From Candidatus Liptonbacteria bacterium (GTDB lineage: Bacteria > Patescibacteriota > Minisyncoccia > UBA6257 > 2-01-FULL-56-20): a DNA stretch of 64,000 nt. The stretch is taken from contig VGJV01000001.1 in the NCBI GenBank assembly GCA_016867315.1, positions 34,863-98,862 on the forward strand. Reading direction: 5' to 3'. A model generated the notes under the pieces. The model had not been told where the DNA came from. It searched no databases and worked only from the letters and a program-made list of their open reading frames with translations. Shown here in pieces: positions 20,760 through 46,658 of the stretch (positions are counted from its first letter, which is position 1; every line of letters begins with the position of its first letter). The translations under genes were made by a program, and so were the position numbers.

Positions 20760-22232
20760 ATGTTTGGACGGGTAAAATCCTTTCTTTTTAAGAATACTTC
20801 CACGCGACAGACCGTGGCGAAGAACACCTTCTGGCTTGGATTTTCCAATTTTGCCGGGAGGTTGATTCGCGCAGTCATTATCGTGTATGCAGCGCGCGTA
20901 TTGGGAGCCGATGGCTGGGGAATCTTTTCTTATGGCGTGACACTCGCAGCATTTCTTACTCCCTTTACGGATGTGGGGCTCAGCCAAGTGCTTATACGCG
21001 AAACAGCAAAAAATACTGACCCTGACCACCGCGCTCGCATCCTCTCCACCACGCTTTTTTTAAAATTCCTACTTCTCGCTGCCGCAATTGTCATAGTTCT
21101 TCTTATCGCCCCTCCTCTCACTACCCTCGAAGAAGCCAAACCTCTTCTTCCTTTGATTGCATTCCTCCTCGCCTTCGATACGCTTCGGGAATTCGGCTTT
21201 GCGATTATCCGCGCCATTGAGCGGATGGAATGGGAAGCAGGTCTTTTTATATTGACCAATATCGCGATCGTGGCGTGTGGATTTGTCTTCCTCGCCCTCT
21301 CTCCTACTCCGCTTTCCTTTACCTATGCCTATACCATTGGAACCGCAGTAGGGGCATTCGCTACATTTTTTGCCCTTCGTAAGCATTTTCCCCCTCGCTT
21401 TCTTTCGCGCTTCACTCCTTCACTTGTAAAACCTATTTTTGCGGCTGCGTGGCCACTTTCGATTGCCGCGCTCCTTGGACTTCTCATGCTGAATACCGAT
21501 ATCCTTATCATCGGCTGGCTCGGCTCGGCCACAGATGTGGGTTACTACTCTGCGGGATATAGGATCGTGCAGCTTCTCTACCTCCTCCCCGCGATTCTCG
21601 CGATCAGCCTTTTCCCTACTCTTTCACGACTGGCGAACAAAGATCAGGCGCTTATGCGCACCACTATAGAAAAAGCGCTCACGGTCGTATTTCTGGCCTC
21701 GCTCCCGCTTGCCGTAGGAGGAATTCTCCTCGGCCCTCAGCTCATTTCGCTTCTCTTCGGAGAAAGTTTTTTGCCTGCCACGGACTCTTTCCGCATTCTC
21801 CTTGCCACGCTCCTTATCGATTTTCCTGTCGTGATTCTTTCGAATGCCCTCTTTGCGTTTAATCTCCCTCGGAAGCTTACGGTGTACGCGGCGCTCGGAG
21901 GATTTTTGAATGTCCTGTTGGATTTCCTGCTCATTCCGCCTTTCGGCATTGTAGGATCCGCATGGGCCACCCTCTTCGCACAATTCGTGAGCACTGCGTA
22001 TCTCTGGGGAGCCCTCAGAACCAAAACGCCTTTCCGAGTATTCCCTCATTTGAAAATTGCGCTGACTGCCACTGTCTGCATGGCAATCGGGACGGTTTTT
22101 CTTAACGCCATTGGGGTGCATGTTCTCGGTACCATTGCCATCAGCGCCCTTATCTATGGCCTCGTGTTGTATTTCCTTAAAGAACCGACGCTTAAAGAAG
22201 TGCGGCAGGCAGTACTTCACTCTACTACCTAG
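20760..22232 (+). CDS. polysaccharide flippase (Wzx/MOP superfamily)
   Basis: 490 aa, about 12-14 TM helices, polysaccharide-biosynthesis-protein N-terminal pattern. Confidence 0.7.
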   Translation: MFGRVKSFLFKNTSTRQTVAKNTFWLGFSNFAGRLIRAVIIVYAARVLGADGWGIFSYGVTLAAFLTPFTDVGLSQVLIRETAKNTDPDHRARILSTTLFLKFLLLAAAIVIVLLIAPPLTTLEEAKPLLPLIAFLLAFDTLREFGFAIIRAIERMEWEAGLFILTNIAIVACGFVFLALSPTPLSFTYAYTIGTAVGAFATFFALRKHFPPRFLSRFTPSLVKPIFAAAWPLSIAALLGLLMLNTDILIIGWLGSATDVGYYSAGYRIVQLLYLLPAILAISLFPTLSRLANKDQALMRTTIEKALTVVFLASLPLAVGGILLGPQLISLLFGESFLPATDSFRILLATLLIDFPVVILSNALFAFNLPRKLTVYAALGGFLNVLLDFLLIPPFGIVGSAWATLFAQFVSTAYLWGALRTKTPFRVFPHLKIALTATVCMAIGTVFLNAIGVHVLGTIAISALIYGLVLYFLKEPTLKEVRQAVLHSTT

Positions 22233-23135: not shown

Positions 23136-24167
23136 ATGACTACTGAACTACTAACTAACCGAAGGAGCAACATTAAAGCTATATCGAAGATACTGGAAGA
23201 AACAGGACATCAGCGGCGGCAGTTTTTGAGACATTTAAATCTGCGACACTTCCCCGACGAGCACTACCCTCTGATCAATGGGGTGGTCTCCGCGGGATTC
23301 GCGGCCGAGCCTTTTGCGGGGCTCGACACAGAAAAACAGGATGAGCGCGAAAGCCACCGAGCTGTTTCTGGCGAAGGCGACGCCATTGCCCAACAAGTGC
23401 TCCTCACTGAACTTTCGGCAGCGTATCCCGATGCCGAATTTCTCCTTGAGGAAGATACATCACCGCATGCGAAATGCTTACCTAAGCAAAATCCTGAGGG
23501 GATTCTCCAGGGTAGAAAGATCGTGGGCGATCCAATCGACAGTTCCACGCGCTTCGGCGGGGACATGAGCCAATGGTGCACTGCGGCGGGCATGCTTCAG
23601 GATGGTCACGTCGTGGGCGGGGCAATCTTTGCTCCCACGATGAATGGCGGCCTCCTGGTCACGAGCCACAAGGGCAAAGGAGTTGTTGTCGTTGAGAAAG
23701 GCGGGCAAAAAGTGTTGACGGATACGACCCCTATTCTTCCTCGAGAGGTGAAAAAGAGTGTCGTACTCCTCGGCGTGGACACCCTGCAGTATCCGGCAAT
23801 CTGCAACTTCATCCCTAAAGTCACAACTGCAGTGCGCGGGGTCTATACGAGTGGGTCCGGAATTCTGGGTCTTGCTTTGGTCGCCGCAGGACGAGCTCAA
23901 GCGATCTTCCAGACTCCGCAAAGGATCTGGGACATCATCCCGGGGATTTGCGCTCTGCGCGAAGCTGGACGCACGGTGCTCTTCTATCGTCGGGACCCAC
24001 AAACCGGATTGCCTACTGAAGTTGGGTTGGACTTCCAAGCATTCTGCTATGATCGCCCGAATCGATTGGGTATCATCGCAGGCGATATTATGCTCGTAGG
24101 TTATCTTGCTCAATTGCTTCAGGAAGCCGGGCCGCTACTCAAGGCAGACGAGAGTCTCAAAGATTAA
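23136..24167 (+). CDS. inositol monophosphatase/CysQ family phosphatase
   Basis: Metal site EEDxS (LLEEDTSPH), DPIDSS, WDIIPG motifs. Confidence 0.7.
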   Translation: MTTELLTNRRSNIKAISKILEETGHQRRQFLRHLNLRHFPDEHYPLINGVVSAGFAAEPFAGLDTEKQDERESHRAVSGEGDAIAQQVLLTELSAAYPDAEFLLEEDTSPHAKCLPKQNPEGILQGRKIVGDPIDSSTRFGGDMSQWCTAAGMLQDGHVVGGAIFAPTMNGGLLVTSHKGKGVVVVEKGGQKVLTDTTPILPREVKKSVVLLGVDTLQYPAICNFIPKVTTAVRGVYTSGSGILGLALVAAGRAQAIFQTPQRIWDIIPGICALREAGRTVLFYRRDPQTGLPTEVGLDFQAFCYDRPNRLGIIAGDIMLVGYLAQLLQEAGPLLKADESLKD

Positions 24168-24230: not shown

Positions 24231-24260
24231 GAACCGACTTACCCTCGGTTCTTTTCTTTT
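24231..24260. terminator. bidirectional intrinsic terminator between convergent IMPase-like and hddC-like genes
   Basis: GAACCGA-cttaccc-TCGGTTC followed by TTTTCTTTTT. Confidence 0.5.
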
Positions 24261-25003
24261 TAAGCCTTCTCTTCCACTTGAAGCTTCTTTATGTTCTCCT
24301 CTACTTCTTTCCACTTCTCGAGCGTATCAATTCCCTTCGAGTAGTCGCCACATTCGTAGCTGTAGAATTTGAGGTTTTTTGCCACGATGTCCGGCAGAAG
24401 TTTTTTGCCGAGGTCATATTTAGTATTTTCCGGCACGTATTTTAAAATTTCTTTCCGCATAATAAATACGCCGCGCATGCGGTAGGCGTTCGGGTAGACT
24501 GCGCTGTGCGGCTTTGTGTGAATCGCGACGTACTTCCCGTCCGCATCGAGTTCGGCTACGTCCGCATCGGCGTAATTCTGGGTTTTTTTCATACGCTGCA
24601 TGCCTAGCGCATCCGCGGGTTTCTTCGCCCAGCTCTCCACCATCTTCGTGTAGTCTACAAGTGAGAAGGTGTCGCCGTAGATAAAAAAGAACTCGTCATT
24701 TAATTGACGCTCAAATGCCTTGATCCCTCCGGCGGAGCCGAGTGGTTCCTTCTCCACAAAATAATTAATTTTCACTCCCCACTTCGAGCCGTCACCGAAA
24801 TAACTCGTGGTTACATCAGGGAGATATTGGAGCGTGAAAAAAAATTCTTTGACGCCGTGTTTTTTGAACTGCTCCACGTGCCACTCGAGCATCGGTTTTC
24901 CCAGAATGGGGATCATCACTTTGGGAATCGTGTCGGTGGTAGGGCGCAACCGAGTCCCCATGCCCCCCGCGGCTATAACCGCCTGTGTAATTCGATTTTG
25001 CAT
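24260..25003 (-). CDS. sugar-1-phosphate nucleotidylyltransferase (HddC-like; start moved to MQNRITQAV)
   Basis: AAGGMGTRLRP (GxGTRxxP) motif; located with gmhA/gmhB/hddA. Confidence 0.75.
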   Translation of the reverse strand: MQNRITQAVIAAGGMGTRLRPTTDTIPKVMIPILGKPMLEWHVEQFKKHGVKEFFFTLQYLPDVTTSYFGDGSKWGVKINYFVEKEPLGSAGGIKAFERQLNDEFFFIYGDTFSLVDYTKMVESWAKKPADALGMQRMKKTQNYADADVAELDADGKYVAIHTKPHSAVYPNAYRMRGVFIMRKEILKYVPENTKYDLGKKLLPDIVAKNLKFYSYECGDYSKGIDTLEKWKEVEENIKKLQVEEKA

Positions 25004-25124: not shown

Positions 25125-26138
25125 ATGAAAGAGGTTCCGTTAATTACGGACGGAGTGCAGCTTGAGGAATGGTTCCATGCGGATCCCAATGTCGTCGCTC
25201 GCACCATCCGGGCGGATGTCTATGACCAAAGTCTTATCATTCGACGATGGCCAGGCAATGTTCCCACAGTGGCGAGTCTTAAAGAGACCTTGCCTAAAAC
25301 TATCAACCGATGGTGGCAGATTGGCCGAGAAGATGATGCGGCAGTGTGTCCGATCAAAACCAAGCCCCAAACCGTGCTTCGCAACATGTTTGTTTACCAT
25401 GCTTATCACACGCAGACGCAACCAGTGAATAAGGAGCAGCAGGTTCTGACCGAAGCCAAGGTGGGTGGTATTGAAATTCAGCTTTATCCCAGCTTCTTCG
25501 CTCATGAAGGCCAGAATCACTTCCTCATTCTTCCTAAAGAATGTTGGTCTCGCGCCACCACTCAAATGGCGGGCGGCCCGGAGACTCTCGCGGGTATTAT
25601 CAAGCTCGCTCGGGAAACGATGCGCGAGAAGTGAAACGGGGATGGGGAGTTCAGTCTGCAGGTGGGCATCCATGCCGCGCAGAACCTGGTGCACGCGCAT
25701 TTTCACGTGTACCGCAATTTGGGCGGACTGGCGGACTTTGGACCAGCACGGATCGATCTCTACAAGTCTATTGTGAGTCCCTCCCTCCACATCTCTGAGC
25801 GCAATGATCTCATTCTCGCGGCAGGAGGGCTGAGAACTGGTCAAGTGCTATTTCTCCCCACAGACACACGCAACCGACCCGAATTCGATGATGCGTTCGC
25901 TCGTGAGCTTTATGGAGTGACTGATGTTTACACCCGAAAACTCATGAGCGTGCAGAACAATCCGGTGGACTTTGCCTTCGAAATTTCGGTGCGTCATGGG
26001 CGGGTAGCATTCGGTGGGGCATATCCGGTTGTCGGCCCACTCGGGACGATGGAGTTTTTCGCACCGCTCATGCCGGAAGCGAAATACTTCAATATTGGTT
26101 GGCCGGAGGAAGAAACTCTGAAACTCTGGTCCAATTAA
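25125..26138 (+). pseudogene. HIT-superfamily (GalT/Apa2-like two-domain) gene interrupted by an in-frame TGA at 25632-25634
   Basis: ORFs 25125-25634 and 25662-26138 are in one frame; HIT motif VHAHFHVY lies 18 codons after the TGA, preceded by the GIHAAQ(N) pattern typical of HIT proteins. Confidence 0.5.
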
Positions 26139-26179
26139 ACCAACAATTCAAAATTTTAAGAGAAAGGATTAAAAACTAC

Positions 26180-26231: not shown

Positions 26232-26783
26232 CTACTTCGTGAACTCGAGAATTTTCGCGGCGGCGGCTTGCATGTCGGAAACAGCGTAATCAGGTTTCGC
26301 ATTCGGGAAAAACTTTTCATCTTCTTTCCCCCCTTCCCCTCCTTCAATCAGGATGGTCTTCATCCCTCCGCGCTTGCCGGTTTCTACATCGCGAAGCGAA
26401 TCTCCCACCATCCAGCTTTGCGAAAGGTCGATGCCAAATTTTACCGCAGCTTCTTGCACCATTCCCTGATCGGGCTTCCGACACGTACAGTGCTGAGGCT
26501 CCCTGAAACGGTGCGGACAGATAAAGGCTGCGTTAATTGTTGCGCCTTCAGCGGCGAATTTTTCCATAAGTACGCGATTAATTTCGTCGCCTTGCTCCCG
26601 GGTGATCTTGCCTTTCTCGATGATTGGCTGATTGGTCAATATGACGCAGAGAAATCCTGCGTCGTTCAGCTTCTTTACTCCTTCTATTGCGCCCGGCAGA
26701 ATCTTCAGTTGCTCGGGACTCGTGAGTTCCAGTACATATTCGATAAGAGTTCCATCTCGGTCCAGAAAAACTGCTTTTTTCAT
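26232..26783 (-). CDS. gmhB: D-glycero-D-manno-heptose 1,7-bisphosphate phosphatase (HAD-IIIA)
   Basis: FLDRDGTL, Zn-binding CPHRFREPQHCTCRKP, MVGDS motifs. Confidence 0.85.
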   Translation of the reverse strand: MKKAVFLDRDGTLIEYVLELTSPEQLKILPGAIEGVKKLNDAGFLCVILTNQPIIEKGKITREQGDEINRVLMEKFAAEGATINAAFICPHRFREPQHCTCRKPDQGMVQEAAVKFGIDLSQSWMVGDSLRDVETGKRGGMKTILIEGGEGGKEDEKFFPNAKPDYAVSDMQAAAAKILEFTK

Positions 26784-26871: not shown

Positions 26872-27480
26872 CTAGGCTTTCTGCACGCTCTCCCACTTGC
26901 CATCAATCTGCTTGAAATTGGGGTGACTTACGATCAAGTGCCAGACCACCGCTTGGAAACTTTCCGTGTGCGGAGTTACCGTTTCGGGATTCACTACCGG
27001 GACCACCACGCAGGCATCAGAAACAGTTTTCGTGTATCCCCCGTCGCGGCCTACTACTCCCATTATTTTTGCTCCTTTGGACTTTGCATATTTCAACGCT
27101 TCCACAATGTTCACGCTCACTTTCTTTTCGGCATTCCCTCCTCCCACCGAAAACACCATCACTCCATCTTTTTGAGAAAGCTTGCTGCCTTCGAGCCACT
27201 TCGCGAACACCGAATCCCAGCCGTCGTCGTTTACGCGGGCGGAAAATTCCGCCACGTTGTCTACGGGAGTGTAGGACTCGATACCCGCGATTTTTCGAAA
27301 ATCATTTACCGCGTGGCTCGCATGCCCCGCTCCCCCTCCTACGCCCAAAATAAAAAGTCGGCCGTGATTCGCACGGATGTCTTTCAAAATATCGATCATA
27401 CTTCCAATCGCGGAGTGATCAATACCATCAATGATTTGTTTCGCTTCCGCGAAATAGGCTTCGATGTAGGGCTTATGCAT
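26872..27480 (-). CDS. gmhA: sedoheptulose-7-phosphate isomerase (SIS domain)
   Basis: SIS motifs LGVGGGAGHASH, VFSVGGG; 202 aa. Confidence 0.85.
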   Translation of the reverse strand: MHKPYIEAYFAEAKQIIDGIDHSAIGSMIDILKDIRANHGRLFILGVGGGAGHASHAVNDFRKIAGIESYTPVDNVAEFSARVNDDGWDSVFAKWLEGSKLSQKDGVMVFSVGGGNAEKKVSVNIVEALKYAKSKGAKIMGVVGRDGGYTKTVSDACVVVPVVNPETVTPHTESFQAVVWHLIVSHPNFKQIDGKWESVQKA

Positions 27481-27575: not shown

Positions 27576-28406
27576 TTAGACTTTCCGGCGCAAGGTATAC
27601 CGGTCGGTTTTCATAAGCTCTGCTATTTCTTTCGGACTCCACTTTTCATATTCATCCCAGACTGCGCTCAGAAATTTACCCGAGAGACCATTCGAAGCCT
27701 CGGAAGCGAGAAACACGCACATTGCGGCAGCTTTCTCTGGAGGGATACCCCCTTCGGTTTTTTGCTTTAATAATTTCTCGTAACGCTCCTTTCCCACTTT
27801 TTCTTCTCCCGCTTCTAGGGCTTCATCCAAGAACTTGGTATTTACCGCCCCAGGCGCAAAGCAATTTATTTCAATTCCAAATTCTTTCAGTTCCGCCGCC
27901 ATGGTTTCCGTGAGGCGCACGATTGCACCTTTCGAAGCATGGTATGCGCTAAAACGCGGCAAAGGACCATCCCCTCCTCCGGAGAAATTAATTATCTTCC
28001 CGAATTTTTGAGCTTTCATGTGGGGAATTACCTCCTGCATCATACGGAAGGTGCCGAAGACGTTGATTTCGAAGGTATCTTTCCATTTCTCAAAATCCAC
28101 CTCTTCCGAAGGCCCAATGGGGCCATAAATCCCGGCTGCATTCACCAGTACGTCTATTTTTCCGAAGGCCCGCAAGGTCGTTTCGACCAGCGTCTTTACA
28201 TCGCCTTCTCGGGAAACATCCGAGGGACAGCCTTCCACATCGGGAAATTTTTTCCGAAGCTCCTCACACGCATCCCGGATTTCCAGGCGGTTGCGGGCGG
28301 CTATCATTACCTTCGCTCCTTCTTTCAAATATGCTTCTGTAATCGCCAAGCCTATGCCGCGACTGCCGCCGGTCACGAGTGCTACCTTATTTTCCAGCTT
28401 GGGCAT
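27576..28406 (-). CDS. short-chain dehydrogenase/reductase (classical SDR)
   Basis: TGGSRGIG, NAAG, YxxxK (YHASK) motifs. Confidence 0.8.
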   Translation of the reverse strand: MPKLENKVALVTGGSRGIGLAITEAYLKEGAKVMIAARNRLEIRDACEELRKKFPDVEGCPSDVSREGDVKTLVETTLRAFGKIDVLVNAAGIYGPIGPSEEVDFEKWKDTFEINVFGTFRMMQEVIPHMKAQKFGKIINFSGGGDGPLPRFSAYHASKGAIVRLTETMAAELKEFGIEINCFAPGAVNTKFLDEALEAGEEKVGKERYEKLLKQKTEGGIPPEKAAAMCVFLASEASNGLSGKFLSAVWDEYEKWSPKEIAELMKTDRYTLRRKV

Positions 28407-29388
28407 AGACTTTTTCTACAATCTTTAAAACTTCCAATACATCTTCGCCTTTAGATTGGAGTTCCATCTCCCCCCCGATCACCGCGGCGAATTCTTCGAG
28501 CTCCCGCACAAACGAATCCTCCTTTTTTTCCTCCGGAAAAGGTGTCACGGTTTCCACTGGGAACTTGCCGGAGCGCGGATCCACTTTCCCTACCGTAAGC
28601 TTTTCGGGACCGCGATAGCGCTTATCCAAGCCGTCTACCGAAAGGTATCCTTTGTCGCCAAAAATCTCGAAGGAATGCACCCATTCCCAGTTTGTCCAGC
28701 TCACATGAATTTGCGCTACGCGTTTGTCCGCAGTGCGAAGCAGGAGAAATCCGTTATCTTCCACTTCTCCTCCCCAAAAGAGATTCTCTGCAAATCCCAG
28801 GGCATCGACAAAATCGCCCATAAACCACCGAGCCATGTCGATCATATGCATTCCTTGATCGATGAGTTCTCCGCCGCCGCTTATTTTCTTATCGAAGCGC
28901 CACTCTTTTTCATAACCGGCGCGGCCGCCGAAACCATATCTCGCGCGGACGCAGATCACTTTGCCAATTTCGCCTTTGTCTACGAGCTTCTTCGCTTCCA
29001 TGTATGCCGGGTGATACCGATGATTGAAACCGATCATATATATCCTTTTCGCGCTGGCCGCGAGTCTCAAATTCTCGGCCACTTCGGCACTCGAGATGCC
29101 CGTAGGCTTTTCGCAAAGCACATGCTTTCCGGCTTCAAGCGCAGATTTCGAAATGGGAGCTAAAAAGGCGTGTGGAGTGGCTATCACGACCGCTTCGAAA
29201 TCACCCTTCTCCAAGGCTTCTTTTATGTCGCCGTAGATCGCAGCCCCAGGGAATCCATCAGCAATGGTTTTCGCTTTGGCTGCATCTATATCTACTACCG
29301 CTTTCACCTCGAATTCTTTGGCTTGCTTCAAAGCATCCGCCCAAATTTTGCCGATACCTCCGGCTCCCACTAATGCGAGTTTTATCAT
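28387..29388 (-). CDS. Gfo/Idh/MocA-family NAD(P)-dependent sugar oxidoreductase
   Basis: N-terminal Rossmann LALVGAGGIG, EKP motif (LCEKP), C-terminal alpha/beta domain. Confidence 0.8.
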   Translation of the reverse strand: MIKLALVGAGGIGKIWADALKQAKEFEVKAVVDIDAAKAKTIADGFPGAAIYGDIKEALEKGDFEAVVIATPHAFLAPISKSALEAGKHVLCEKPTGISSAEVAENLRLAASAKRIYMIGFNHRYHPAYMEAKKLVDKGEIGKVICVRARYGFGGRAGYEKEWRFDKKISGGGELIDQGMHMIDMARWFMGDFVDALGFAENLFWGGEVEDNGFLLLRTADKRVAQIHVSWTNWEWVHSFEIFGDKGYLSVDGLDKRYRGPEKLTVGKVDPRSGKFPVETVTPFPEEKKEDSFVRELEEFAAVIGGEMELQSKGEDVLEVLKIVEKVYAQAGK

Positions 29389-30683
29389 CGTCCGATACTT
29401 ATATAGGTTATTCCCGCCCCTTTTATTTCTTTTTCCTTATCACACAAAATATTTTGCGCGTCGAAGAGCGCGGGCTGTTTCATGACTGACTGGAGTTTCG
29501 CAAAATCCAAGGTTTTAAAGTCTTTCGAGGGGGTTATAATAAGCACCGCATCCGCACCCTCGGCGGCCTCGTAGGCATCTTTAAAGAACGGGGAAGGGGT
29601 TACTGCTTTTACCTCTTCCGGATTTGCAAGCGGATCATAGAGTCGGAACGAGGCGCCAGCTTCCCGAAGCATTTTTTCCACTTCAAGCGCCTGCGAGCGC
29701 CGAAGCGTGGGAGTCCCGGCTTTGTACGTAACTCCCAAGAGCGCAATTGTTTTTCCCCTCACGTTTCCTCCCCACATTTCTTCTAACCTAGTTTTTACTA
29801 ATTCATTTCTTACACGATTCTTTTGGAGCACTCCTTGAATCACCGGCAAAGGAAGTTTTTCCCGTTCACCAGCATGTATTAGTGCTTTAAGGTCTCGTGC
29901 GAGCGTACCTCCGGAGAATCCAAGCCCTGCAAAGAGGTATGCCTTGGGTCCCACCCGAGGGTCGGACTTCAAGGCCCTGATCACATCTTCAATATCGCCG
30001 CCCATTTTCCCCGATACATCCGCGAGATCATTCGTGAAACTAATGCACGTCGCCAAAAACGCATTCAGGGCATGTTTCGCCATTTCGGCCGAAGGTACGG
30101 ACATCGATACTATTTCCACTTTGAGCGGAGCGAAAATCTCCGTTGCGCGCGCCAAGGCTTCCGAGGTATCCCCTCCCAGTACCACCCGACCGGGTTCGAG
30201 GAAACATTTTACCGCATCTCCTAGCCTCAGATTCTCCGGAGAATATACATATTCGAAGTGCAGTTCCGGACGAGCGGCGCGAATCAACTCACAAAGTTTT
30301 TTAGAGGTGCCTACGGGCAATTGGCTCGAAACTCCTACGAGCACATTGTCTCGAAGGAAAGGCGCGGCTTTCTCTACCGCTTCTACCACCACGGAGATAT
30401 CCACTTCATCTTGATCGTCTACCGGCGTGTCGAAAGTAATCCAAATTGCGTTGCAATCTTTCAAGGCCAGCCAGTCGGAAGAATATGCGAGCGTGCCTGC
30501 GGTGCGGTGCTTCTCGATAAGTTCCGTGAGGCGAGGCTCTGCAAGAGGAGGAATATTTTTATTAAAATTCGCGATGACTGCCTCGTCATCGCTTACACCC
30601 ACCACCGAATGCCCTGCTTCCGCAAAACCTGCCGAATACACTTCGCCCAAATGCCACAACCCTATCACCCCTATTTTCACCAT
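29385..30683 (-). CDS. nucleotide-sugar 6-dehydrogenase family protein (UGDH-like) lacking the catalytic cysteine; start moved to MVKIGVIG
   Basis: SDPRVGPKAYLFAGLGFSGGTLARD aligns to the UGDH GFGGSC(F/L)PKD active-site region with Cys->Thr, Lys->Arg; N-terminal glycine motif reads GVIGLWHLG. Confidence 0.65.
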   Translation of the reverse strand: MVKIGVIGLWHLGEVYSAGFAEAGHSVVGVSDDEAVIANFNKNIPPLAEPRLTELIEKHRTAGTLAYSSDWLALKDCNAIWITFDTPVDDQDEVDISVVVEAVEKAAPFLRDNVLVGVSSQLPVGTSKKLCELIRAARPELHFEYVYSPENLRLGDAVKCFLEPGRVVLGGDTSEALARATEIFAPLKVEIVSMSVPSAEMAKHALNAFLATCISFTNDLADVSGKMGGDIEDVIRALKSDPRVGPKAYLFAGLGFSGGTLARDLKALIHAGEREKLPLPVIQGVLQKNRVRNELVKTRLEEMWGGNVRGKTIALLGVTYKAGTPTLRRSQALEVEKMLREAGASFRLYDPLANPEEVKAVTPSPFFKDAYEAAEGADAVLIITPSKDFKTLDFAKLQSVMKQPALFDAQNILCDKEKEIKGAGITYISIGR

Positions 30684-30690
30684 AAGATAT

Positions 30691-31419
30691 TTAAGCTTCG
30701 TATAACTTGTAACCGACTTTCTCACCGTCCTCGTAGAACATCTTTACCGTTTCCTGCGAAAGTGTGTACAGATCATAATCCAACTTTTCTAATTTTTTCA
30801 AAATATCCGGAGTTACCGTTACGATGTGGCAACCCATTTTTTCAGCCTGGAGAATATTCAGAAGCTCCCGTGTGCTCGCCCAAAGAAGTTCCGCGACGGA
30901 ATTCGATGCTAGGATTTTTTTTGCCTCTTCCATATACGGCAACGGATCTCTTCCGGTATCCGCGATCCGGCCAGCAAACACCGAGACTATAGAGGGCACC
31001 TTCGGAGAAAGCACCGCGGCCACTTCTTTTACCTGCTCTACCGTAAGAATTGCGGTTACATTTACTTTCACTCCTTTCTCCACGAGTTTTTTAATCAACG
31101 GCGCAGAGGATTCTTTCTTGGTGTTCATCACTGGAATTTTCACGTAGACATTGTTCGCCCAGGAATTGATGAGCATAGCCTGCCGCTCCATCTCCACAAA
31201 ATCGTCGGAGAACACCTCAAAAGAAATGGATTTCCCGGTAATCGAGGCGAGTACGTCTTTCGCAAAAGCGGCGTAATCGGTTACTCCTGCTTTCCGCATG
31301 AGCGTGGGATTCGTGGTGAGCCCCTGGATATACGGCTTTGACGCAAGCTCCACCATACTTGCCTTCTCGGCGCCATCCGCAAAAATTTTTATGCGTAACT
31401 CTTCAATTTTCCTACTCAT
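30691..31419 (-). CDS. tal: transaldolase / fructose-6-phosphate aldolase family (short form)
   Basis: TTNPTL motif, Schiff-base lysine region VYVKIP; about 240 aa. Confidence 0.8.
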   Translation of the reverse strand: MSRKIEELRIKIFADGAEKASMVELASKPYIQGLTTNPTLMRKAGVTDYAAFAKDVLASITGKSISFEVFSDDFVEMERQAMLINSWANNVYVKIPVMNTKKESSAPLIKKLVEKGVKVNVTAILTVEQVKEVAAVLSPKVPSIVSVFAGRIADTGRDPLPYMEEAKKILASNSVAELLWASTRELLNILQAEKMGCHIVTVTPDILKKLEKLDYDLYTLSQETVKMFYEDGEKVGYKLYEA

Positions 31420-31427
31420 ATTTTAGT

Positions 31428-32414
31428 TTAGAGATCTACCAGCACCTTAGAGCCCTCAAAGTCGAACCGATAACTCATTTCTCGCAAACCAAATTGCTTC
31501 ATCGCTGCCCGAAATTCCCTGTGCTTCTCCGGTACATAGAAAGTGAAAAATCCTCCCCCTCCCGCACCAGAGATTTTCCCCCCCAGCGCTCCCGCAGCTT
31601 TCCCCGCGTCGTATATTTTATCGAATTCCGGATTTGAAACTTTGCTTGACGTGCGCTTTTTGTGCTGCCAGTGTGCATCAAAGAGCTTCCCCACTTCGTC
31701 TACATCGTCCGACTCCATAGCTTCCAGTATTTGCTGGCCAATTTCTTTTATATAATGCATGCTCTCAATCACATCCTTCGCTTCTTCCTTCATCCCCTTC
31801 GATTGCTCGGCAAGCACTACATCCGCACTGCGCTTCACTCCCGTGAAAAACATAAGCATGTTTCGATTCAATGTATCCGCGGTAATTCGCGAAACATTCG
31901 CCTTGCGCACTTTCACGCTGCCGTCTTTCGCAATATCTAATACTGTAAGTCCTCCGAATGCCGCCATATAGGGGTCCTGCTTTCCTATCGGCCGGCCCAT
32001 TACCTTATTCTCAATCGTAAAATCTTCTTCTGCGAGCGTTTCCTGAGGAACATACTCCCGCTTCAATGTGTGTAAGGCGTGGAGTACCGCCACCGCAAAA
32101 CAACTCGAGGAGCCAAGTCCCGTCCCCGCGGAGACATCCGCCACCGTCGAAATTTCGATCTGCTTTTCGATACCTATAAGTCGCAAAATTTCCCGGAAGA
32201 GGCCATGTTTCACTTCGTTTATGCTTGCGACGTATTCCGCCTCGCTGTATTTCAGCCGAATCAGATCATCTTCCATCGGGCGGTTTACGCTCGCGAACAT
32301 ATATTTGTCGATTCCCGCGGAGAAAATAAACCCGCCGTGTTTCTCATAGTATGACGGCAAGTCCGTTCCTCCTCCTCCTAAGGTTACCCGAAATGGGGTG
32401 CGTGTAATGATCAT
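31428..32414 (-). CDS. hddA: GHMP kinase, D-glycero-alpha-D-manno-heptose 7-phosphate kinase-like
   Basis: GHMP motif SAGTGLGSSS, N-terminal TPFRVTLGGGGTD. Confidence 0.7.
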   Translation of the reverse strand: MIITRTPFRVTLGGGGTDLPSYYEKHGGFIFSAGIDKYMFASVNRPMEDDLIRLKYSEAEYVASINEVKHGLFREILRLIGIEKQIEISTVADVSAGTGLGSSSCFAVAVLHALHTLKREYVPQETLAEEDFTIENKVMGRPIGKQDPYMAAFGGLTVLDIAKDGSVKVRKANVSRITADTLNRNMLMFFTGVKRSADVVLAEQSKGMKEEAKDVIESMHYIKEIGQQILEAMESDDVDEVGKLFDAHWQHKKRTSSKVSNPEFDKIYDAGKAAGALGGKISGAGGGGFFTFYVPEKHREFRAAMKQFGLREMSYRFDFEGSKVLVDL

Positions 32415-32420
32415 GTTGGT

Positions 32421-33347
32421 TTATTTAATATTACCTTTTTTGAATTCTGCCTTCATCCAATCCACCTGCGCTCGAAGCCCTTCTTCGAGGGATGTCTTCG
32501 GCGCCCATCCTAATTTTTTCGCCTCACTCCAGTCGGCGAGCGTGGCCACTGGAGGGTCCTCTGCTCCGCGAGGTTTCATTATTGGGTCTGGAGTTACACC
32601 CATAACTTTTACGATCGTGTCATACACTTCTTTTATAGAAGTGGATTCCCCACTTCCGAGGCGGAACATTTTGTTTTTCACTCGATCGTCCGAAAGGCAT
32701 AACATATGAAAATCATTTATATCATCCACATATACAAAATCTCTTTTGTTTTCGTCGTCTCCTTCAAAAATTACCGGTTGCTTCCCTTTCAAGAACGCAA
32801 TAATGAGCTTACTCATTACGGGCGGAGATTTCCGGCGATAATCTTGGCGCGGGCCATACAAATTGAAATAGCGGAGGCTCACAACGTCCATCTCAAAAGC
32901 CGCCCGGTATCCTTCCGCAATCCGAGCATCCGTGAGTTTGGAAATGGCATAAAACCCTTTGAGGCGCTCATCGCCCTCTTCCACTGCCGAAGATTCGGCA
33001 TACATCGTGCGGGGCACATTCGCCAGTCGCGCCGCTTCAAATACGTTTGCAGTACCCGTGACATTTATATCCATCGTCTCTACCGGATCCGCTTGGCAGT
33101 CGGGCAGGCAATTCTTTGCCGCGAGGTGAAACACCCGATCAATCCCCTTGAAAAGCGGATATATATCTTTCGAACGAATATCGGCTTTATGGAATTCCAC
33201 TCCGCCGGGCACCTGATCTTTGCGGCCGCACTCAAGATTGTCGATCCCTACTACGCGATGCTCTGCGGCAACCAAACGATCCGCCAGGTTACTCCCAATA
33301 AACCCTGCCACGCCGGTTATTAACACATTTAATTTCCCTTCGCGCAT
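32421..33347 (-). CDS. NAD-dependent nucleotide-sugar epimerase/dehydratase (SDR extended)
   Basis: ITGVAGFIGSNL, YAISK (YxxxK). Confidence 0.8.
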   Translation of the reverse strand: MREGKLNVLITGVAGFIGSNLADRLVAAEHRVVGIDNLECGRKDQVPGGVEFHKADIRSKDIYPLFKGIDRVFHLAAKNCLPDCQADPVETMDINVTGTANVFEAARLANVPRTMYAESSAVEEGDERLKGFYAISKLTDARIAEGYRAAFEMDVVSLRYFNLYGPRQDYRRKSPPVMSKLIIAFLKGKQPVIFEGDDENKRDFVYVDDINDFHMLCLSDDRVKNKMFRLGSGESTSIKEVYDTIVKVMGVTPDPIMKPRGAEDPPVATLADWSEAKKLGWAPKTSLEEGLRAQVDWMKAEFKKGNIK

Positions 33348-33365: not shown

Positions 33366-34325
33366 TCACCCCCTGCTGTCTACCGGAATGAAAAGGTTCT
33401 TTTTCTTAAGATTCCACGCCTTTTCCACTACAAATCTAGCGAGCTTAGAGGGAATTAGACTCCCTATTCCGCACCAGAAACTTCCTCGGCTCCCTGGGAG
33501 CGCTTTGCGGAGCATGGCACACCCCTCGGTTTTTCTTCCCATCGCTAAGTAAGCAATCGCTAAGCGTAGCCGCCGCTTTGCGAGAATACGTTCCATTCTG
33601 TATTTCTGCTTTTCTTCGGCAGACATATGTGCATGCAGGTTCTCAAAAATCTTCACCGCGGATTCCTGGATAGGTACTTGGTTTTTGAAATTCGTATTGT
33701 TGTCCCAGCGAAGCCTATAGCGCACAAGATCTTTCGGTAAAAACCCGATCTTATGTCCCGCGTGGGCCATGCGAAGGAAATAATCCCAGTCCTCCACCAT
33801 GCCCAGGGATTCATCATATCCACCTAATTCGCTAAACACCGATTTCCGAAACATGAGCGTCGTGTTCGTGATGAACATTCTCTTCAAGAGCTCCTCAAAA
33901 ATATCTCCCGAGTAAAACGTGTATTTATGGCGATACAACTTCTCCGGACGGCCGTCGAAGAAGTATCTCAAATCACAATAGACTGCGGCATATTCGGGGT
34001 TTTGATCCAAGAAGGCGGCTTCTTCAGCCACTTTTTCTGAGAGGTATACGTCGTCCGAATCAAGGAACGTCCAATACTCTCCCTTGGCCTCCTTAAAGAG
34101 CCTGTTTCTTCCCTCTTTGATCCCAAGGCGGACCCCTGGGAATATCGCCCGAATCCGCGCGTCCCGATGAGACTCTATTATTTCTTTGGTTTTATCCTTC
34201 GAACCACCATCTACAATCACCACTTCAAAATTAGGGTATGTTTGCGCAAGCGCCGAGCGCAGTGCTTCCTCAATGTAACGCTCGGAATTGAAGGTGGTTA
34301 TAAGAATGGAAACTAGGGGTCTCAT
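33366..34325 (-). CDS. glycosyltransferase family 2
   Basis: VSILITTFNSE, VVIVDGGSKD, FLDSDD motifs. Confidence 0.8.
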   Translation of the reverse strand: MRPLVSILITTFNSERYIEEALRSALAQTYPNFEVVIVDGGSKDKTKEIIESHRDARIRAIFPGVRLGIKEGRNRLFKEAKGEYWTFLDSDDVYLSEKVAEEAAFLDQNPEYAAVYCDLRYFFDGRPEKLYRHKYTFYSGDIFEELLKRMFITNTTLMFRKSVFSELGGYDESLGMVEDWDYFLRMAHAGHKIGFLPKDLVRYRLRWDNNTNFKNQVPIQESAVKIFENLHAHMSAEEKQKYRMERILAKRRLRLAIAYLAMGRKTEGCAMLRKALPGSRGSFWCGIGSLIPSKLARFVVEKAWNLKKKNLFIPVDSRG

Positions 34326-34359
34326 AGGAGTCCCGTAAGGGATGCTTTCACCTTACCTT

Positions 34360-35328
34360 TTAGGCACTTCGGAACACAAGAGCGCGGCGGGCGAGCCTTA
34401 TTTGGCGCAACAGCCTGCTTATAAGCCGCGCAGGAAGCAGCTCGAAAGGCGTCCAGGCCAGTACCGCGAGCAACTTCCCTTGGGGGCTTCCTCCAAACGC
34501 CTCCAGAAAATGAGCGCGGGCTTCCTTTTTTCGTCCTGCAAGCAAGTTCGCAAGCGCCACCTTGATGCGGAAACTCCAGAGTAAATATGAAATTCCATAA
34601 CGTTTTTGCTCTTCTTTCGAAATTTTTTCTTTGAGAAGTTCGAGGCCGCGAAGCGCCATGAGCTTCGCGAGAGGTTCATACGATATTCCCCTCGCACACT
34701 CCGCGCCGCATAGGCGAATTTTCACTAGCGGCATATTCAAAAATTCGATCTGCGCTCCCCCATAACTCGTCCGCAGCCAAAACTCCATATCCTCCGCCAA
34801 TGACAGCGCCTCATTAAATCCTCCCGCGCGCACTAGAAATTCTTTTCGAGCGAGGACTGTGGAAGGAGCGACAAAGAAATTACGCAAAAGGTTTGGAAAT
34901 ACTTCTTTACCGGAATAATACTTGTACTGGAGCCTGAAAAGCTCTTTCGGTTTATCTTCCGCGAAGTGGTAAGGAGCGCAATAGGACACATCCGCAGCGC
35001 TTTCTTCAAAATATTTCACTTGCTCCGATAGTTTTTCAGGGAGGAAAATATCCGTAGCTTCGAGGAATGCAACATATTTACCTTTCGCAGCCGCAATTCC
35101 TTTATTCCATGCGACGGCCCTACCCGCAGAGGAGGTGATGTAATGAATTTGTTTCGTTCGCAAGTAAGGAGTAAGGATTTCTTTCGCGTGCCCGCCTGCT
35201 TCTTCCTCTATTACGATTATTTCTTTATTCGGATAGGTCTGCAGAAGTGCAGAATCCACGGCCTCTCTGATAAATCCTCCCTGAGTCGAAGATGGAATAA
35301 GAATGGACACCAATTCTTTCATGCCCAC
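34360..35328 (-). CDS. glycosyltransferase family 2-like
   Basis: VSILIPSS, QTYPNKEIIVIEE, degenerate DXD (EATD). Confidence 0.65.
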   Translation of the reverse strand: MGMKELVSILIPSSTQGGFIREAVDSALLQTYPNKEIIVIEEEAGGHAKEILTPYLRTKQIHYITSSAGRAVAWNKGIAAAKGKYVAFLEATDIFLPEKLSEQVKYFEESAADVSYCAPYHFAEDKPKELFRLQYKYYSGKEVFPNLLRNFFVAPSTVLARKEFLVRAGGFNEALSLAEDMEFWLRTSYGGAQIEFLNMPLVKIRLCGAECARGISYEPLAKLMALRGLELLKEKISKEEQKRYGISYLLWSFRIKVALANLLAGRKKEARAHFLEAFGGSPQGKLLAVLAWTPFELLPARLISRLLRQIRLARRALVFRSA

Positions 35329-42560: not shown

Positions 42561-43625
42561 CTACGTCAACGACTTGGCCCACTCAATTGTGCGCTCCAGG
42601 CCCTCGTCAAAAGAAGTGAGGGGGAACTTTCCCATTTCCTTTTGGATTTTCGAGAGGTCGAGTTTCACGACTTGCGGTTCCCTGCCAATGTGCCGCAGTG
42701 TGGACTTTTTCTTGGGTACCACTACGGAGGCACCACATTCTTTTCCAATTTTTTTCGCAAGTTCCCGAATGCTCAAACTGTCTTTTCCTCCTACGTTATA
42801 CACCATTTCCTTCCCGTGAAATCCCGCGTAGAGAATCATTGCGATCACGTCCGCGATGTAGCCGTAGGTTTTGACTGCCCGGCCCTCATCGAGGAGCGCG
42901 ATCTGTTTTCCTTCGAGCGCTTTTCGGATAAAGTCGCTCATCACGCGCGTGTCTGTCCGAGAAAGTCCTGGTCCGTAGACATGCGAGATGCGCACGATTT
43001 TGGCCGTAATCCCGAAATGGCTGGCATAGAACGCGGAGAGCGATTCTCCTAACCGCTTGGATTCTCCATAGATCGCGCGCGGGGTGTGGAGCGGCGGATT
43101 GCCGTTGTAGGTTTCTTTTACCGGAAGCTCCGCCGCAGGAATATCTCCATATACTTCCGCAGAGCTAAAAAAAATAAACCGGCCTCGGCTTTTCCGCGCA
43201 TGCTCAAGCAGACTTTGTGTCGCCGCTACATTCACCGCCACAGTGGAGCTGGGATTCTCCAAAAATTTAGCTGGCTGGCCGTACCCAGCGCCATGAAAAA
43301 TCACATCCCATCGGCCTTCTAGAGCAAACGGACGAGATAAATCTTTTTTTATGAAACGGATTTCTTTTTGGAGGAGAAGCTCTTTTAATACCGGCCCTGG
43401 GATTCCTCTGCCAATTCCCACAATCTCACAGGATACGTTTTGGGCCCGCTTTGCAGCTACCAGCGCTTGCACCACATACTGCCCCAGAAAACCAGAGGCT
43501 CCCGTTATCAAAATTTTTTTGCCTTTGAGATCACTCCCCTTTATCCATGGGAGGATCGCCTTACAGTCCTCTTCTATTATGGAAATTCCGCTATTCGCTG
43601 GACTCAATTTTCTTTTTTTTCGCAT
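42561..43625 (-). CDS. NAD-dependent epimerase/dehydratase (UDP-glucuronate decarboxylase-like; start at internal ATG, overlaps upstream gene about 35 nt)
   Basis: ITGASGFLG, YGESK (YxxxK). Confidence 0.7.
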   Translation of the reverse strand: MRKKRKLSPANSGISIIEEDCKAILPWIKGSDLKGKKILITGASGFLGQYVVQALVAAKRAQNVSCEIVGIGRGIPGPVLKELLLQKEIRFIKKDLSRPFALEGRWDVIFHGAGYGQPAKFLENPSSTVAVNVAATQSLLEHARKSRGRFIFFSSAEVYGDIPAAELPVKETYNGNPPLHTPRAIYGESKRLGESLSAFYASHFGITAKIVRISHVYGPGLSRTDTRVMSDFIRKALEGKQIALLDEGRAVKTYGYIADVIAMILYAGFHGKEMVYNVGGKDSLSIRELAKKIGKECGASVVVPKKKSTLRHIGREPQVVKLDLSKIQKEMGKFPLTSFDEGLERTIEWAKSLT

Positions 43626-45432: not shown

Positions 45433-45478
45433 GGCCTCATTGTGGCAGACAAACCTCGAAAACTCAACTTTAAAGGGC

Positions 45479-46639
45479 TTAGTGACTCCCCAGTTCCTTT
45501 ACCGCTTTTTGAATTCTCCGACAGCCTTCACGAAGCTTCACGGCAGCATTTATGGCGTAACAAAGACGCACGTAGTTTTTCCCTGCTTCTCCAAATCCCG
45601 AGCCGGGGCAGACCACCACTCCCGTCGTTCGCAGAAGATGCGCGCTAAACTCATCGCCCGTCATTCCCGTGCGGGATACGTCGATCATGAGATAAAACGC
45701 CCCCTGAGGCTTTGCGAAGTCGAGCTCCGGAATCTTTTTAAGTTCCTCACAGACAATCTCCCGAAGTTTCGTGTATTCCTCCAGATAGACTTTGCTAAAT
45801 TTTTTTCTGCCCTCAAGGGCCGTTACACACGCATCCTGAAGGAACGGCGGCACACACGAAACGATTGTCTGGGAGAGAAGTCCTATTTTTTGAATCACCG
45901 CCTCGGGACCTACCCCATATCCCACTCGCCAGCCAGTCATTGCGAAAGGCTTCGAAAAACCGCTCGTCACAATCACCCGCTCGCGACATTTATCCAAGGT
46001 GCCCACAGAAAAATGCTTTCCCTCGTATACGAAAGGCGCATAAATTTCATCGCTAATAAGAAAACAGTTATGGCGCTTCGCTATGTTGTAAATCGCCACT
46101 AGGTCTTCTTTGGAATATACCGCACCCGTGGGATTCGACGGAGAATTTACTACAATCACCCGTGTTTTTTTAGTAAGCTTTTTTTCTATTTCCCCAGGGG
46201 AGAACCGGAAATTATTTTTATGCGTTACGGGCACGTAGACTCCCCTCAAATTCAGTGTGGCGATTGCTGCGCGATAGGTTACAAACGCCGGATCGGTAAG
46301 AATCACTTCTTCCCCGGGATTCGCGAGCACTGCAAGCAGATAATAGATCAGTGGGTTCGCCCCGGTGGTTACCACCACTTGCCCCAGCGCCGGCTCGAAT
46401 CCATAGTCCTCTCTAAAAACCTTTAGAACGGTCGTGCGTAAGTTATGCTCTCCGAAAGAATCGCCATAATGCGTCCGCCCCTTTTTCAGCGAAGCCACTG
46501 CGGCAGCTTTTACTTCCGAAGGCATTTCGAGGTGCGTATCTCCAATTTCAAAATGAATAATATCTTTTCCTTCCCGCTCGAGCGCTTTCGCTTCCCCCAA
46601 GAGCTTAAACATGGACTGACCCACGATGCGCTCCGCCAT
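45479..46639 (-). CDS. PLP-dependent aminotransferase, class I/II (AspAT fold); start at MAERIV
   Basis: SGFSKPFAMTGWRVGY PLP-lysine motif, NPTG motif. Confidence 0.8.
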   Translation of the reverse strand: MAERIVGQSMFKLLGEAKALEREGKDIIHFEIGDTHLEMPSEVKAAAVASLKKGRTHYGDSFGEHNLRTTVLKVFREDYGFEPALGQVVVTTGANPLIYYLLAVLANPGEEVILTDPAFVTYRAAIATLNLRGVYVPVTHKNNFRFSPGEIEKKLTKKTRVIVVNSPSNPTGAVYSKEDLVAIYNIAKRHNCFLISDEIYAPFVYEGKHFSVGTLDKCRERVIVTSGFSKPFAMTGWRVGYGVGPEAVIQKIGLLSQTIVSCVPPFLQDACVTALEGRKKFSKVYLEEYTKLREIVCEELKKIPELDFAKPQGAFYLMIDVSRTGMTGDEFSAHLLRTTGVVVCPGSGFGEAGKNYVRLCYAINAAVKLREGCRRIQKAVKELGSH

Positions 46640-46658
46640 CGTCGAAAGTGGAGGTGTA

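Follow-up and report, generated by a model that had tools for sequence, protein, structure and literature searches.

The closest described relatives of the system analysed here are the enzymes that build the octose of lincomycin. In that pathway LmbR transfers a C3 unit from fructose 6-phosphate or sedoheptulose 7-phosphate onto ribose 5-phosphate to give octulose 8-phosphate (PMC5854111), LmbN acts as isomerase, LmbK as C8 phosphatase and LmbO as guanylyltransferase (PMC4351081), and LmbM, LmbL, CcbZ (the homologue of LmbZ) and CcbS carry GDP-octose to GDP-D-alpha-D-lincosamide, LmbM being an epimerase and LmbS a transaminase (PMC12945683). LmbL itself is listed as a dehydrogenase in published tables, a label that may be annotation only (PMC4351081, PMC12945683). 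Our subject is a gene at positions 29385..30683 on the minus strand of a 64,000-nucleotide stretch of Candidatus Liptonbacteria DNA (assembly GCA_016867315.1, contig VGJV01000001.1, positions 34,863 to 98,862; hereafter the window), whose 432-residue product has the fold of the UDP-glucose 6-dehydrogenases (UGDHs), has no catalytic cysteine and, by its residue signature, is a member of the LmbL family. Our best overall explanation, to which we assign a probability of roughly 0.6, is that this protein would carry out a two-electron oxidation at C6 of a higher-carbon sugar linked to a nucleoside diphosphate (NDP), with a Gfo/Idh/MocA oxidoreductase (Gfo) and a classical short-chain dehydrogenase (SDR) encoded beside it as partners.

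That the protein belongs among the UGDHs in the broad sense is clear from several lines of analysis. Pfam matches the N-terminal, central and C-terminal UGDH domains (PF03721, PF00984 and PF03720), and in NCBIfam the general nucleotide sugar dehydrogenase family TIGR03026 reaches 297 bits, above its cut-off of 190, whereas the function-specific equivalogs TuaD, AglM, WecC, TviB and Ugd all fall far below cut-off, the best of them being TuaD with 275 bits against 700. The AlphaFold2 model, built from a 95-sequence alignment, has a mean predicted local confidence (pLDDT) of 95.6, exceeds 90 in the N-domain, and superposes on BceC, UgdG and human UGDH with template-modelling (TM) scores of 0.90-0.93 (0.92 for BceC); its top structural matches share 31-32% identity in the Foldseek alignment. 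The open reading frame (ORF) begins at an ATG 7 nt past the stop codon of a transaldolase gene. A longer GTG-start ORF reaching up to 30725 was considered and set aside: it would overlap the transaldolase gene, and homologues begin at the ATG point instead.

A first-pass annotation of this DNA, made from the letters alone, had proposed that the catalytic Cys is replaced by Thr and the neighbouring Lys by Arg, and that the dinucleotide-binding motif is degenerate. Alignment by phmmer to the solved UGDHs 4A7P, 3GG2 and 2Y0E bears this out: Thr260 aligns with the catalytic Cys, gap-free at that point, Arg263 with the neighbouring Lys, and Trp10 with the second Gly of GxGxxG, within the motif GVIGLWHLG (residues 5-13, nt 30645-30671). 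The active-site stretch reads SDPRVGPKAYLFAGLGFSGGTLARD (residues 240-264, nt 29892-29966). A Cys that gap adjustment might bring into place was looked for and none is reachable, because the closest gap in these alignments is one residue lying 13 positions upstream of Thr260 and because the flanking motif G-x-G-[FY]-x-G-x-[CT]-x-x-[KR]-D fixes the register. Nor can a single sequencing error account for the change, since the Thr260 codon (29904-29906) is ACG and differs from TGY at all three positions. As for a substitute nucleophile, the five Cys residues of the window protein (77, 131, 160, 213 and 414) are not conserved as replacements; one Cys is frequent in the family, at position 224, where it is also canonical in both solved enzymes inspected and where the window protein has Ser. 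With Thr260 in place of Cys the thioester half of the UGDH reaction is impossible, as the first-pass annotation had argued, and four-electron oxidation to a uronic acid by the known mechanism is not possible for a protein with these residues.

The remaining changes extend well beyond the nucleophile. The residues that mark the protein are W10 (30654-30656), H11, Q121, N151, L154, H204, T260 and R263, while K203, N207 and D264 are retained. The GxGY loop reads GLWHLG, with Gly replaced by Trp10 and Tyr by His11; this Tyr, which is implicated in thioester hydrolysis, is Tyr10 of BceC, and the PDB entries of BceC Y10 mutants carry the title 'the final step of UGDs reaction'. Gln121 stands in place of the Thr of the S-T-V-P loop, which we take to be Thr131 of human UGDH, contacting the catalytic water, and Leu154 in place of the Glu of PEFLxEG, presumably a nicotinamide-ribose contact in the human enzyme. 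The Rossmann scaffold is mostly kept (G8, G13, D33/D34 after strand 2, T86-P87, S120-x-x-P123-V-G-T and R328).

Is such a protein simply dead? The first-pass annotation had allowed for a pseudoenzyme, and the breadth of the family speaks against it. An exhaustive HMMER search covered 1.84 billion cluster representatives, of which we aligned the best 150 (50%-identity clusters). In 138 of these 150 the Cys position holds Thr (Ser in one) together with the same accompanying changes, so the orthologous clade with Thr at this site that the annotation had envisaged does exist. Common to the 138 are GLWHLG, PENLRLG, KHAxN, GGTL[AG]RD and TYKxGTxTLRRS; the 10 aligned Cys-bearing representatives show GxGYVG and PEFLREG, as canonical enzymes do. 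The two groups can be told apart at thirteen positions, where conservation in the Cys-less group is 86% or higher: G10W, Y11H, V12L, G92D, T121Q, F151N, E154L, Y204H, S259G, C260T, K263R, F320Y and D326T. Conservation among the 138 is 86% for W10, 93% for H11, 99% for T260 and 100% for R263. Lys203, Asn207, Asp264, Glu150 and Arg328 are kept in both groups alike, and the first three of these are 98-100% conserved in the Cys-less family and in canonical enzymes. A Candidatus Liptonbacteria (Patescibacteria) genome encodes a protein 100% identical to that of the window, and almost all of the best 120 homologues (49-83% identity) carry GLWHLG and GFSGGTL[AG]RD. In a distance-based neighbour-joining tree the split between Cys-containing and Cys-less sequences is recovered in 200 of 200 bootstraps, and LmbL falls among the Cys-less sequences.

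A coordinated signature of 13 positions conserved across phyla is not the mark of decay, and we therefore reject the pseudoenzyme; the retained catalytic residues and the confident model with its TM score of 0.92 to UGDH argue the same way. Instead the Cys-less group looks like a case of neofunctionalisation, in which the thiohemiacetal and thioester machinery was removed while the residues for hydride transfer and acid-base catalysis were kept. As far as sequence can tell, the LmbL family is a large, ancient offshoot of the UDP-glucose/GDP-mannose dehydrogenases that lacks the residues for the second oxidation and hydrolysis. Public databases annotate its members as 'UDPglucose 6-dehydrogenase' or 'nucleotide sugar dehydrogenase', and the clusters of ten high-GC representatives contain generic member names only, LmbL not among them.

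The link to lincomycin runs through a lincosamide-type sugar operon of Streptomyces cyaneofuscatus NPDC058568 (locus L008, 393-7863), whose L protein is 41% identical to LmbL. The genes of this operon follow the order DegT aminotransferase, nucleotidyltransferase, GHMP kinase, Gfo, SIS, epimerase, UGDH-like protein, HAD, which is the lmb order S-O-P-Z-N-M-L plus K (PMC12945683 Table 2). S. lincolnensis is not among the listed matches of the genome scan described below, and LmbL was reached by way of the L008 UGDH-like protein, which as a query returned a sequence (P0347) named LmbL [Streptomyces lincolnensis] by NCBI and UniRef. LmbL bears GLWHLG, PENLRLG, KHATN and GATLRRD, in which Thr stands for the catalytic Cys and Arg for the Lys, as well as TYKPGTATLRDS, and it aligns with the window protein at 34% identity over 361 aa (E 2e-48).

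The relationship is not confined to this one protein. Pfam identifies in the lmb cluster (L128) TAL_FSA (R), DegT (S), NTP_transferase (O), GHMP (P), Gfo/Idh/MocA (Z), SIS_2 (N), Epimerase (M), the UGDH-like protein (L) and HAD (K), and in BLASTP against the L128 proteins eight window proteins have exactly one lmb-cluster match each. The identities are low: 34% between the UGDH-like protein and LmbL, 32% between Gfo and LmbZ (E 2e-47), 30% between SIS and LmbN, 37% between HAD and LmbK, 28% between the transaldolase and LmbR, 32% between the GHMP kinase and LmbP, 23% between the epimerase and LmbM, and 24% between the nucleotidyltransferase and LmbO. The same comparison gave no counterpart of the window SDR in the lmb cluster and none of LmbS in the window module. 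In phmmer the Gfo scores 149.4 bits to LmbZ against at most 103.4 to solved Gfo-family proteins, the SIS protein 54.8 bits to LmbN against at most 33.5 to solved GmhA, and the transaldolase 70.6 bits to LmbR against at most 62.3 to solved transaldolase/FSA.

These comparisons also bear on the pathway that the first-pass annotation had in mind, namely that a Cys-less enzyme of UGDH/WbpA type, working in a WbpA-WbpB-like arrangement, gets no further than the 6-aldehyde of UDP-Glc, UDP-GlcNAc or GDP-Man. The adjacency on which it was based is real, as is the UGDH fold without Cys: the stop codon of the UGDH-like gene overlaps the start codon of the Gfo gene (ATGA), and the Gfo and SDR genes share a 20-nt overlap. 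The WbpA-WbpB comparison, however, does not hold. Pfam and NCBIfam searches of the neighbours found no WbpE/WbpD/WbpI-type aminotransferase, acetyltransferase or 2-epimerase adjoining the UGDH-like gene, the sole aminotransferase-family gene seen in the window being of class I/II and about 15 kb away. The Gfo scores only some 65 bits to 3Q2K and 3Q2I (named 'oxidoreductase'/'dehydrogenase' in the PDB), which we take to be WlbA/WbpB-type chains and to which it is thus far less close than to LmbZ. Moreover, the conserved context is that of a higher-sugar activation pathway, with neighbours that match the lincomycin GDP-octose set, and the 13-residue signature is hard to reconcile with a decaying enzyme, so that we regard this reading as very improbable. 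Of the annotation's proposal the two-electron chemistry survives, a single C6 oxidation being the likeliest reaction; its product would probably be the 6-ketone of an NDP-heptose or NDP-octose rather than the 6-aldehyde of any of those three hexose nucleotides.

Family membership, the residue signature, the conservation of the module, its gene fusions and the complementary spread of SDR and aminotransferase are results of the analysis, whereas which sugar is the substrate, where it is oxidised, with which cofactors, in what sequence the reactions run and what they yield are inferred. The neighbouring enzymes would build the NDP-sugar in the lincomycin order, by way of transaldolase, SIS isomerase, GHMP kinase, HAD phosphatase and nucleotidyltransferase. 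The UGDH-like protein would bind this NDP-activated higher-carbon sugar, most likely GDP-octose and less likely GDP-heptose, and would perform one NAD+-dependent two-electron oxidation of the secondary C6 alcohol to a 6-ketone. In both heptoses and octoses C6 carries a secondary hydroxyl, and since a 6-ketone needs no thiohemiacetal, no second oxidation and no hydrolysis, the loss of the Cys, of the GxGY Tyr and of their associated residues would be explained. The translationally coupled LmbZ-like Gfo would then help to remove the C8 hydroxyl, the two proteins together achieving a redox-neutral conversion of the LmbL/LmbZ type that leaves a 6-keto, C8-deoxygenated sugar, and the adjoining classical SDR, probably NADPH-dependent, would reduce the 6-ketone, occupying the place of the aminotransferase LmbS. 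The predicted product is NDP-8-deoxyoctose or a related sugar, its stereochemistry set by a variable epimerase, which would pass to the downstream glycosyltransferases and so into a cell-surface glycan.

What do LmbL and LmbZ contribute in lincomycin? Relative to gluco-octose, lincosamide has C4 inverted, an amino group at C6 and C8 deoxygenated. Since M is an epimerase and S a transaminase, LmbL and LmbZ must by elimination yield a 6-keto/8-deoxy intermediate. Motifs of the window proteins hint at their coenzymes: the acidic pair D33/D34 after strand 2 of the UGDH-like protein suggests NAD over NADP, the Asp at the end of strand 2 of the Gfo (VVDID), whose EKP motif reads LCEKP, suggests NAD as well, and the motifs TGGSRGIG and IAARN of the SDR suggest NADP(H) by the standard coenzyme rules for classical SDRs.

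Several points weigh against this reading. Trp10 and Leu154 may mean that NAD binding by the UGDH-like protein is altered or lost, or NAD may be bound differently, for example tightly and without exchange as in dehydratases. Here one may ask whether the protein turns over NAD productively at all: it could instead be a sugar-nucleotide-binding acid-base subunit for enolisation or elimination, with the Gfo and SDR performing all hydride transfers. Two NAD-contact positions of canonical UGDHs are indeed replaced (G10W and E154L), the acid-base residues K203 and D264 are kept, and close coupling, at times outright fusion, links the gene to those of two bona fide oxidoreductases. Against such a non-redox subunit stand the mostly conserved Rossmann scaffold, an N-domain modelled at pLDDT above 90, and the published naming of LmbL as a dehydrogenase, with the caveat on that name given above, and on balance we find it improbable.

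The main reading meets further difficulties. The protein scores higher to the canonical enzyme 4A7P (241 bits) than to LmbL (175 bits); the transaldolase, with its 28% identity to LmbR, belongs to a different subfamily (TIGR02134); and the epimerase, at 23%, barely matches LmbM. A '6,8-dehydration' by LmbL and CcbZ was reportedly described by Wang et al. in 2020, and the division of labour between LmbL and LmbZ follows that reported description together with the elimination argument. We know of no bacterial glycan in which 8-deoxyoctose has been found. Finally, the sequences do no more than lean towards octose over heptose.

The argument gains from the distribution of the genes. We define the module as nine genes, encoding the transaldolase, SIS protein, GHMP kinase, HAD phosphatase, nucleotidyltransferase, epimerase, Cys-less UGDH-like protein, Gfo and SDR. 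The same gene set, in variable order, surrounds the homologues in other Patescibacteria (L003-L006), and in a Terriglobia genome (L007) the module lies within a Wza/Wzc exopolysaccharide cluster. A complete module sits on plasmid 3 of Lawsonia intracellularis (L129 6952-15303, NC_008014.1), an obligate intracellular pig pathogen, where the RefSeq names are generic: SIS, HAD-IIIA, transaldolase, nucleotide sugar dehydrogenase, SDR, Gfo/Idh/MocA, 'galactokinase' and nucleotidyltransferase. The plasmid copy also has a gene for a lysyl-phosphatidylglycerol-synthase-like membrane protein between the transaldolase and UGDH-like genes.

Scanning genomes with a DNA pattern that encodes K-H-x-x-N…G-[GA]-T-L-x-R-[DE] gave at least 120 loci, each examined as an 8-kb block. 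Among the matches listed are Actinomycetota, Acidobacteriota, Planctomycetota, Verrucomicrobiota, Myxococcota, Chloroflexota, Alphaproteobacteria, Saccharibacteria and one metagenome-assembled genome (MAG) of Micrarchaeota. Within the 120 listed loci, tblastn with the window proteins found the UGDH-like protein in 119, the SDR in 92, the Gfo in 70, the epimerase in 69, the GHMP kinase in 54, the transaldolase in 33, the SIS protein in 29 and the HAD protein in 27, usually at 40-65% identity. One match, in Haloarcula sediminis (L092), is a chance occurrence of the pattern, tblastn showing no module protein there; few such matches are expected. The Micrarchaeota MAG (L097, 4380-7200) encodes a member of the family that shares 43% identity with the window protein, adjoining an SDR and a transaldolase-like gene, and this occurrence in DPANN archaea is either a cross-domain transfer or a binning artefact.

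Of the 92 loci with an SDR gene, 76 have it no more than 300 nt from the UGDH-like gene, and 91 of the 120 loci have an SDR but no aminotransferase. An LmbS-like aminotransferase occurs in just two of the 120, both actinobacterial loci with LmbL-like proteins (L008 and L058) and both without an adjacent SDR. Because the distributions of the SDR and the LmbS-like aminotransferase are complementary, the proposed reduction step gains support, and it appears that one keto intermediate is either reduced or transaminated, depending on the locus. Relatives are found in other Streptomyces, Allocatelliglobosispora scoriae, Brachybacterium and Rhodococcus, and loci such as L008 and L058 may be uncharacterised amino-octose natural-product clusters.

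Gene fusions point to functional coupling within the module. The adh_short SDR is fused to the UGDH-like protein in three cluster representatives, in either order, and a family-2 glycosyltransferase (GT2) is fused to it in one (P0122, P0187, P0224 and P0237). In another Patescibacterium locus (L003 5806-7161; also in L004) a transaldolase and a SIS protein form one uninterrupted 451-aa ORF, with residues 8-244 matching the window transaldolase at 61% identity and residues 254-449 the window SIS protein at 62%, a Rosetta-stone link between the transaldolase and isomerase steps.

In the window itself all nine module genes lie on the minus strand. Read from upstream to downstream, that is with decreasing coordinate, they are the extended-SDR NDP-sugar epimerase/dehydratase (32421..33347), weakly similar to LmbM; the GHMP kinase (31428..32414), the HddA-related counterpart of LmbP and proposed anomeric kinase; the TIGR02134-type transaldolase (30691..31419), counterpart of LmbR; the UGDH-like gene; the LmbZ-like Gfo/Idh/MocA oxidoreductase (28387..29388); the adh_short SDR (27576..28406), the proposed 6-ketoreductase, assigned from Pfam and from the fusions seen elsewhere; the GmhA-like SIS-domain sugar-phosphate isomerase (26872..27480), counterpart of LmbN and more distant from solved GmhA; the GmhB-related HAD-IIIA phosphatase (26232..26783), counterpart of LmbK; and the HddC-related sugar-1-phosphate nucleotidyltransferase (24260..25003), counterpart of LmbO, for which we infer a start at MQNRITQAVIAAGG. 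The kinase, transaldolase and phosphatase assignments come from Pfam, NCBIfam and BLASTP, that of the Gfo from Pfam and BLASTP. Two family-2 glycosyltransferase genes lie directly downstream (33366..35328, minus strand), and since they adjoin the module we place it in a surface-glycan cluster, which also holds a Wzx flippase gene (20760-22232, plus strand).

The relatives named in this list raise the question of whether the sugar has seven carbons rather than eight. The module could make GDP-D-glycero-D-manno-heptose, the transaldolase supplying sedoheptulose 7-phosphate, the GmhA/HddA/GmhB/HddC-like enzymes activating it, the Cys-less enzyme oxidising the C6 hydroxyl of the heptose, and the SDR and/or Gfo reducing the ketone with inversion (6-epimerisation) or modifying the sugar otherwise. 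The best specific NCBIfam matches of the window proteins are in fact to heptose enzymes, GmhB with 129 bits, HddA with 164, HddC with 88 and GmhA with 50, but all lie far below the equivalog cut-offs, that of GmhA being 209. The window transaldolase scores 326 bits against TIGR02134, above cut-off, a subfamily that NCBI annotates as housekeeping transaldolase, and the fusion of transaldolase and SIS protein suits the synthesis and isomerisation of sedoheptulose 7-phosphate just as well as those of an octulose. The C6 alcohol of a heptose being secondary too, loss of the Cys would be equally well explained.

On the other hand, we know of no GDP-heptose cluster with a transaldolase. A module-specific transaldolase is kept in Rhizobium and Acidobacteriota, in which a full pentose-phosphate pathway is to be expected. 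The SIS protein resembles LmbN more closely than it does any GmhA of solved structure, and the homologues of LmbL and LmbZ are conserved jointly, while their reaction in lincomycin requires C8. The co-conservation of LmbL and LmbZ homologues, the position of the SIS protein and the retention of a dedicated transaldolase in the module are what lead us to favour octose, and we consider a heptose product unlikely.

A few other features of the glycan cluster deserve mention. On the plus strand at 25125-26141 a frame of 339 codons is broken by one in-frame TGA (25632-25634); both halves match a single unbroken gene in another Patescibacterium locus (L006 6985-7890), which has no Pfam match. The second half of the frame, which has a further match at L005 18233-19129, contains a histidine-triad-like HAHFHVY, with which HLHYHV and HLHWHV of the homologues align. 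A pseudogene, an error in sequencing or read-through could each account for the broken frame. A gene of the inositol-monophosphatase family stands beside the module in three Patescibacteria loci (window 23136-24167, plus strand; L005 17302-18231; L006 5616-6620), accompanied in each by a HIT-like gene, and could encode a second sugar-phosphate phosphatase. Further along the same cluster a gene for a thiamine diphosphate (ThDP) enzyme of 613 aa adjoins that for the class I/II aminotransferase (447 aa) at 43591-46822 (minus strand), between RmlD/cupin/epimerase genes and apparent genes for a GDP-fucose synthase and a GDP-mannose 4,6-dehydratase, as judged by N-terminal sequences only; this pair may represent a second unusual pathway, to a branched or amino sugar.

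More generally, we propose that the module probably builds an unusual seven- or eight-carbon sugar for the cell surface. The window protein is of a kind already known and studied biochemically, that of LmbL. In the open-access literature we found no text on the Cys-to-Thr/GLWHLG signature, on the size or phylogenetic breadth of the family, or on an SDR-containing module in surface-glycan clusters, and literature searches on Cys-less UGDHs, 8-dehydration and octose in glycans returned nothing relevant. What looked like a dead UGDH would find its explanation, the loss of the Cys being part of a coordinated set of changes by which a four-electron primary-alcohol oxidase probably became a two-electron secondary-alcohol dehydrogenase, and the signature GLWHLG, PENLRLG, K-H-x-x-N, GGTL[AG]RD and TLRRS tells the family from true UGDHs.

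We also raise, tentatively and at somewhat less than even odds, the possibility that the lincomycin 'octose' pathway is a specialised offshoot of a widespread, unrecognised primary pathway, in which the nine-gene module makes NDP-8-deoxyoctose or a related C8 sugar for surface glycans in many phyla. Carriers were seen in Patescibacteria, Acidobacteriota, Planctomycetota, Verrucomicrobiota, Myxococcota, Chloroflexota, Alphaproteobacteria and Lawsonia intracellularis, and possibly in DPANN archaea; those in culture include L. intracellularis, Rhizobium jaguaris and R. tubonense, Gemmata algarum and Luteitalea pratensis. If this is so, the names now given to the module proteins, such as UDP-glucose 6-dehydrogenase, galactokinase or transaldolase, are mis-annotations. 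If the sugar is an octose, eight-carbon deoxysugars would be common in bacterial envelopes, including those of ultra-small Patescibacteria and of an animal pathogen, and it would be clear from what the lincosamide sugar pathway evolved. The module enzymes could also be used for the chemoenzymatic synthesis of rare sugars.

How, then, does this locus compare with the systems already described? With the canonical UGDHs (UgdG 4A7P, BceC 2Y0C-E and the human enzyme) the window protein shares its three domains, its fold, the catalytic Lys, Asn and Asp and the Glu of the PE motif, and it differs from them in Cys260 to Thr, GxGY to GxWH, PEFLREG to PENLRLG, S-T-V-P to S-Q-x-P and Lys263 to Arg. With WbpA/WbpB (WlbA) it has in common a UGDH-family gene beside a Gfo/Idh/MocA gene, but that pathway requires WbpE, WbpD and WbpI, none of which adjoins here, and WbpA keeps its catalytic Cys. 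The pathway to GDP-D-glycero-alpha-D-manno-heptose draws on the same GmhA, HddA, GmhB and HddC families for isomerisation, anomeric phosphorylation, dephosphorylation and nucleotidyl transfer; the window module differs in its dedicated transaldolase, fused to the isomerase in related loci, and in a trio of C6-modifying enzymes not known from heptose pathways. The closest likeness is to the LmbL system, with LmbZ of S. lincolnensis or CcbZ of S. caelestis. LmbL and the window protein belong to the same Cys-less clade and share GLWHLG, PENLRLG, K-H-x-x-N, G-[GA]-T-L-x-R-D and TYKxGTxTLRxS, and in both systems a Gfo/Idh/MocA protein is paired with the UGDH-like one and the transaldolase, SIS, GHMP, HAD, nucleotidyltransferase and epimerase genes co-occur. 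The two proteins are nevertheless only 34% identical, the window transaldolase is of another subfamily than LmbR and its epimerase is hardly related to LmbM. Lincomycin has the aminotransferase LmbS where the window has a classical SDR, and its genes form an antibiotic cluster, whereas those of the window lie in the glycosyltransferase/flippase glycan cluster of a Patescibacterium.

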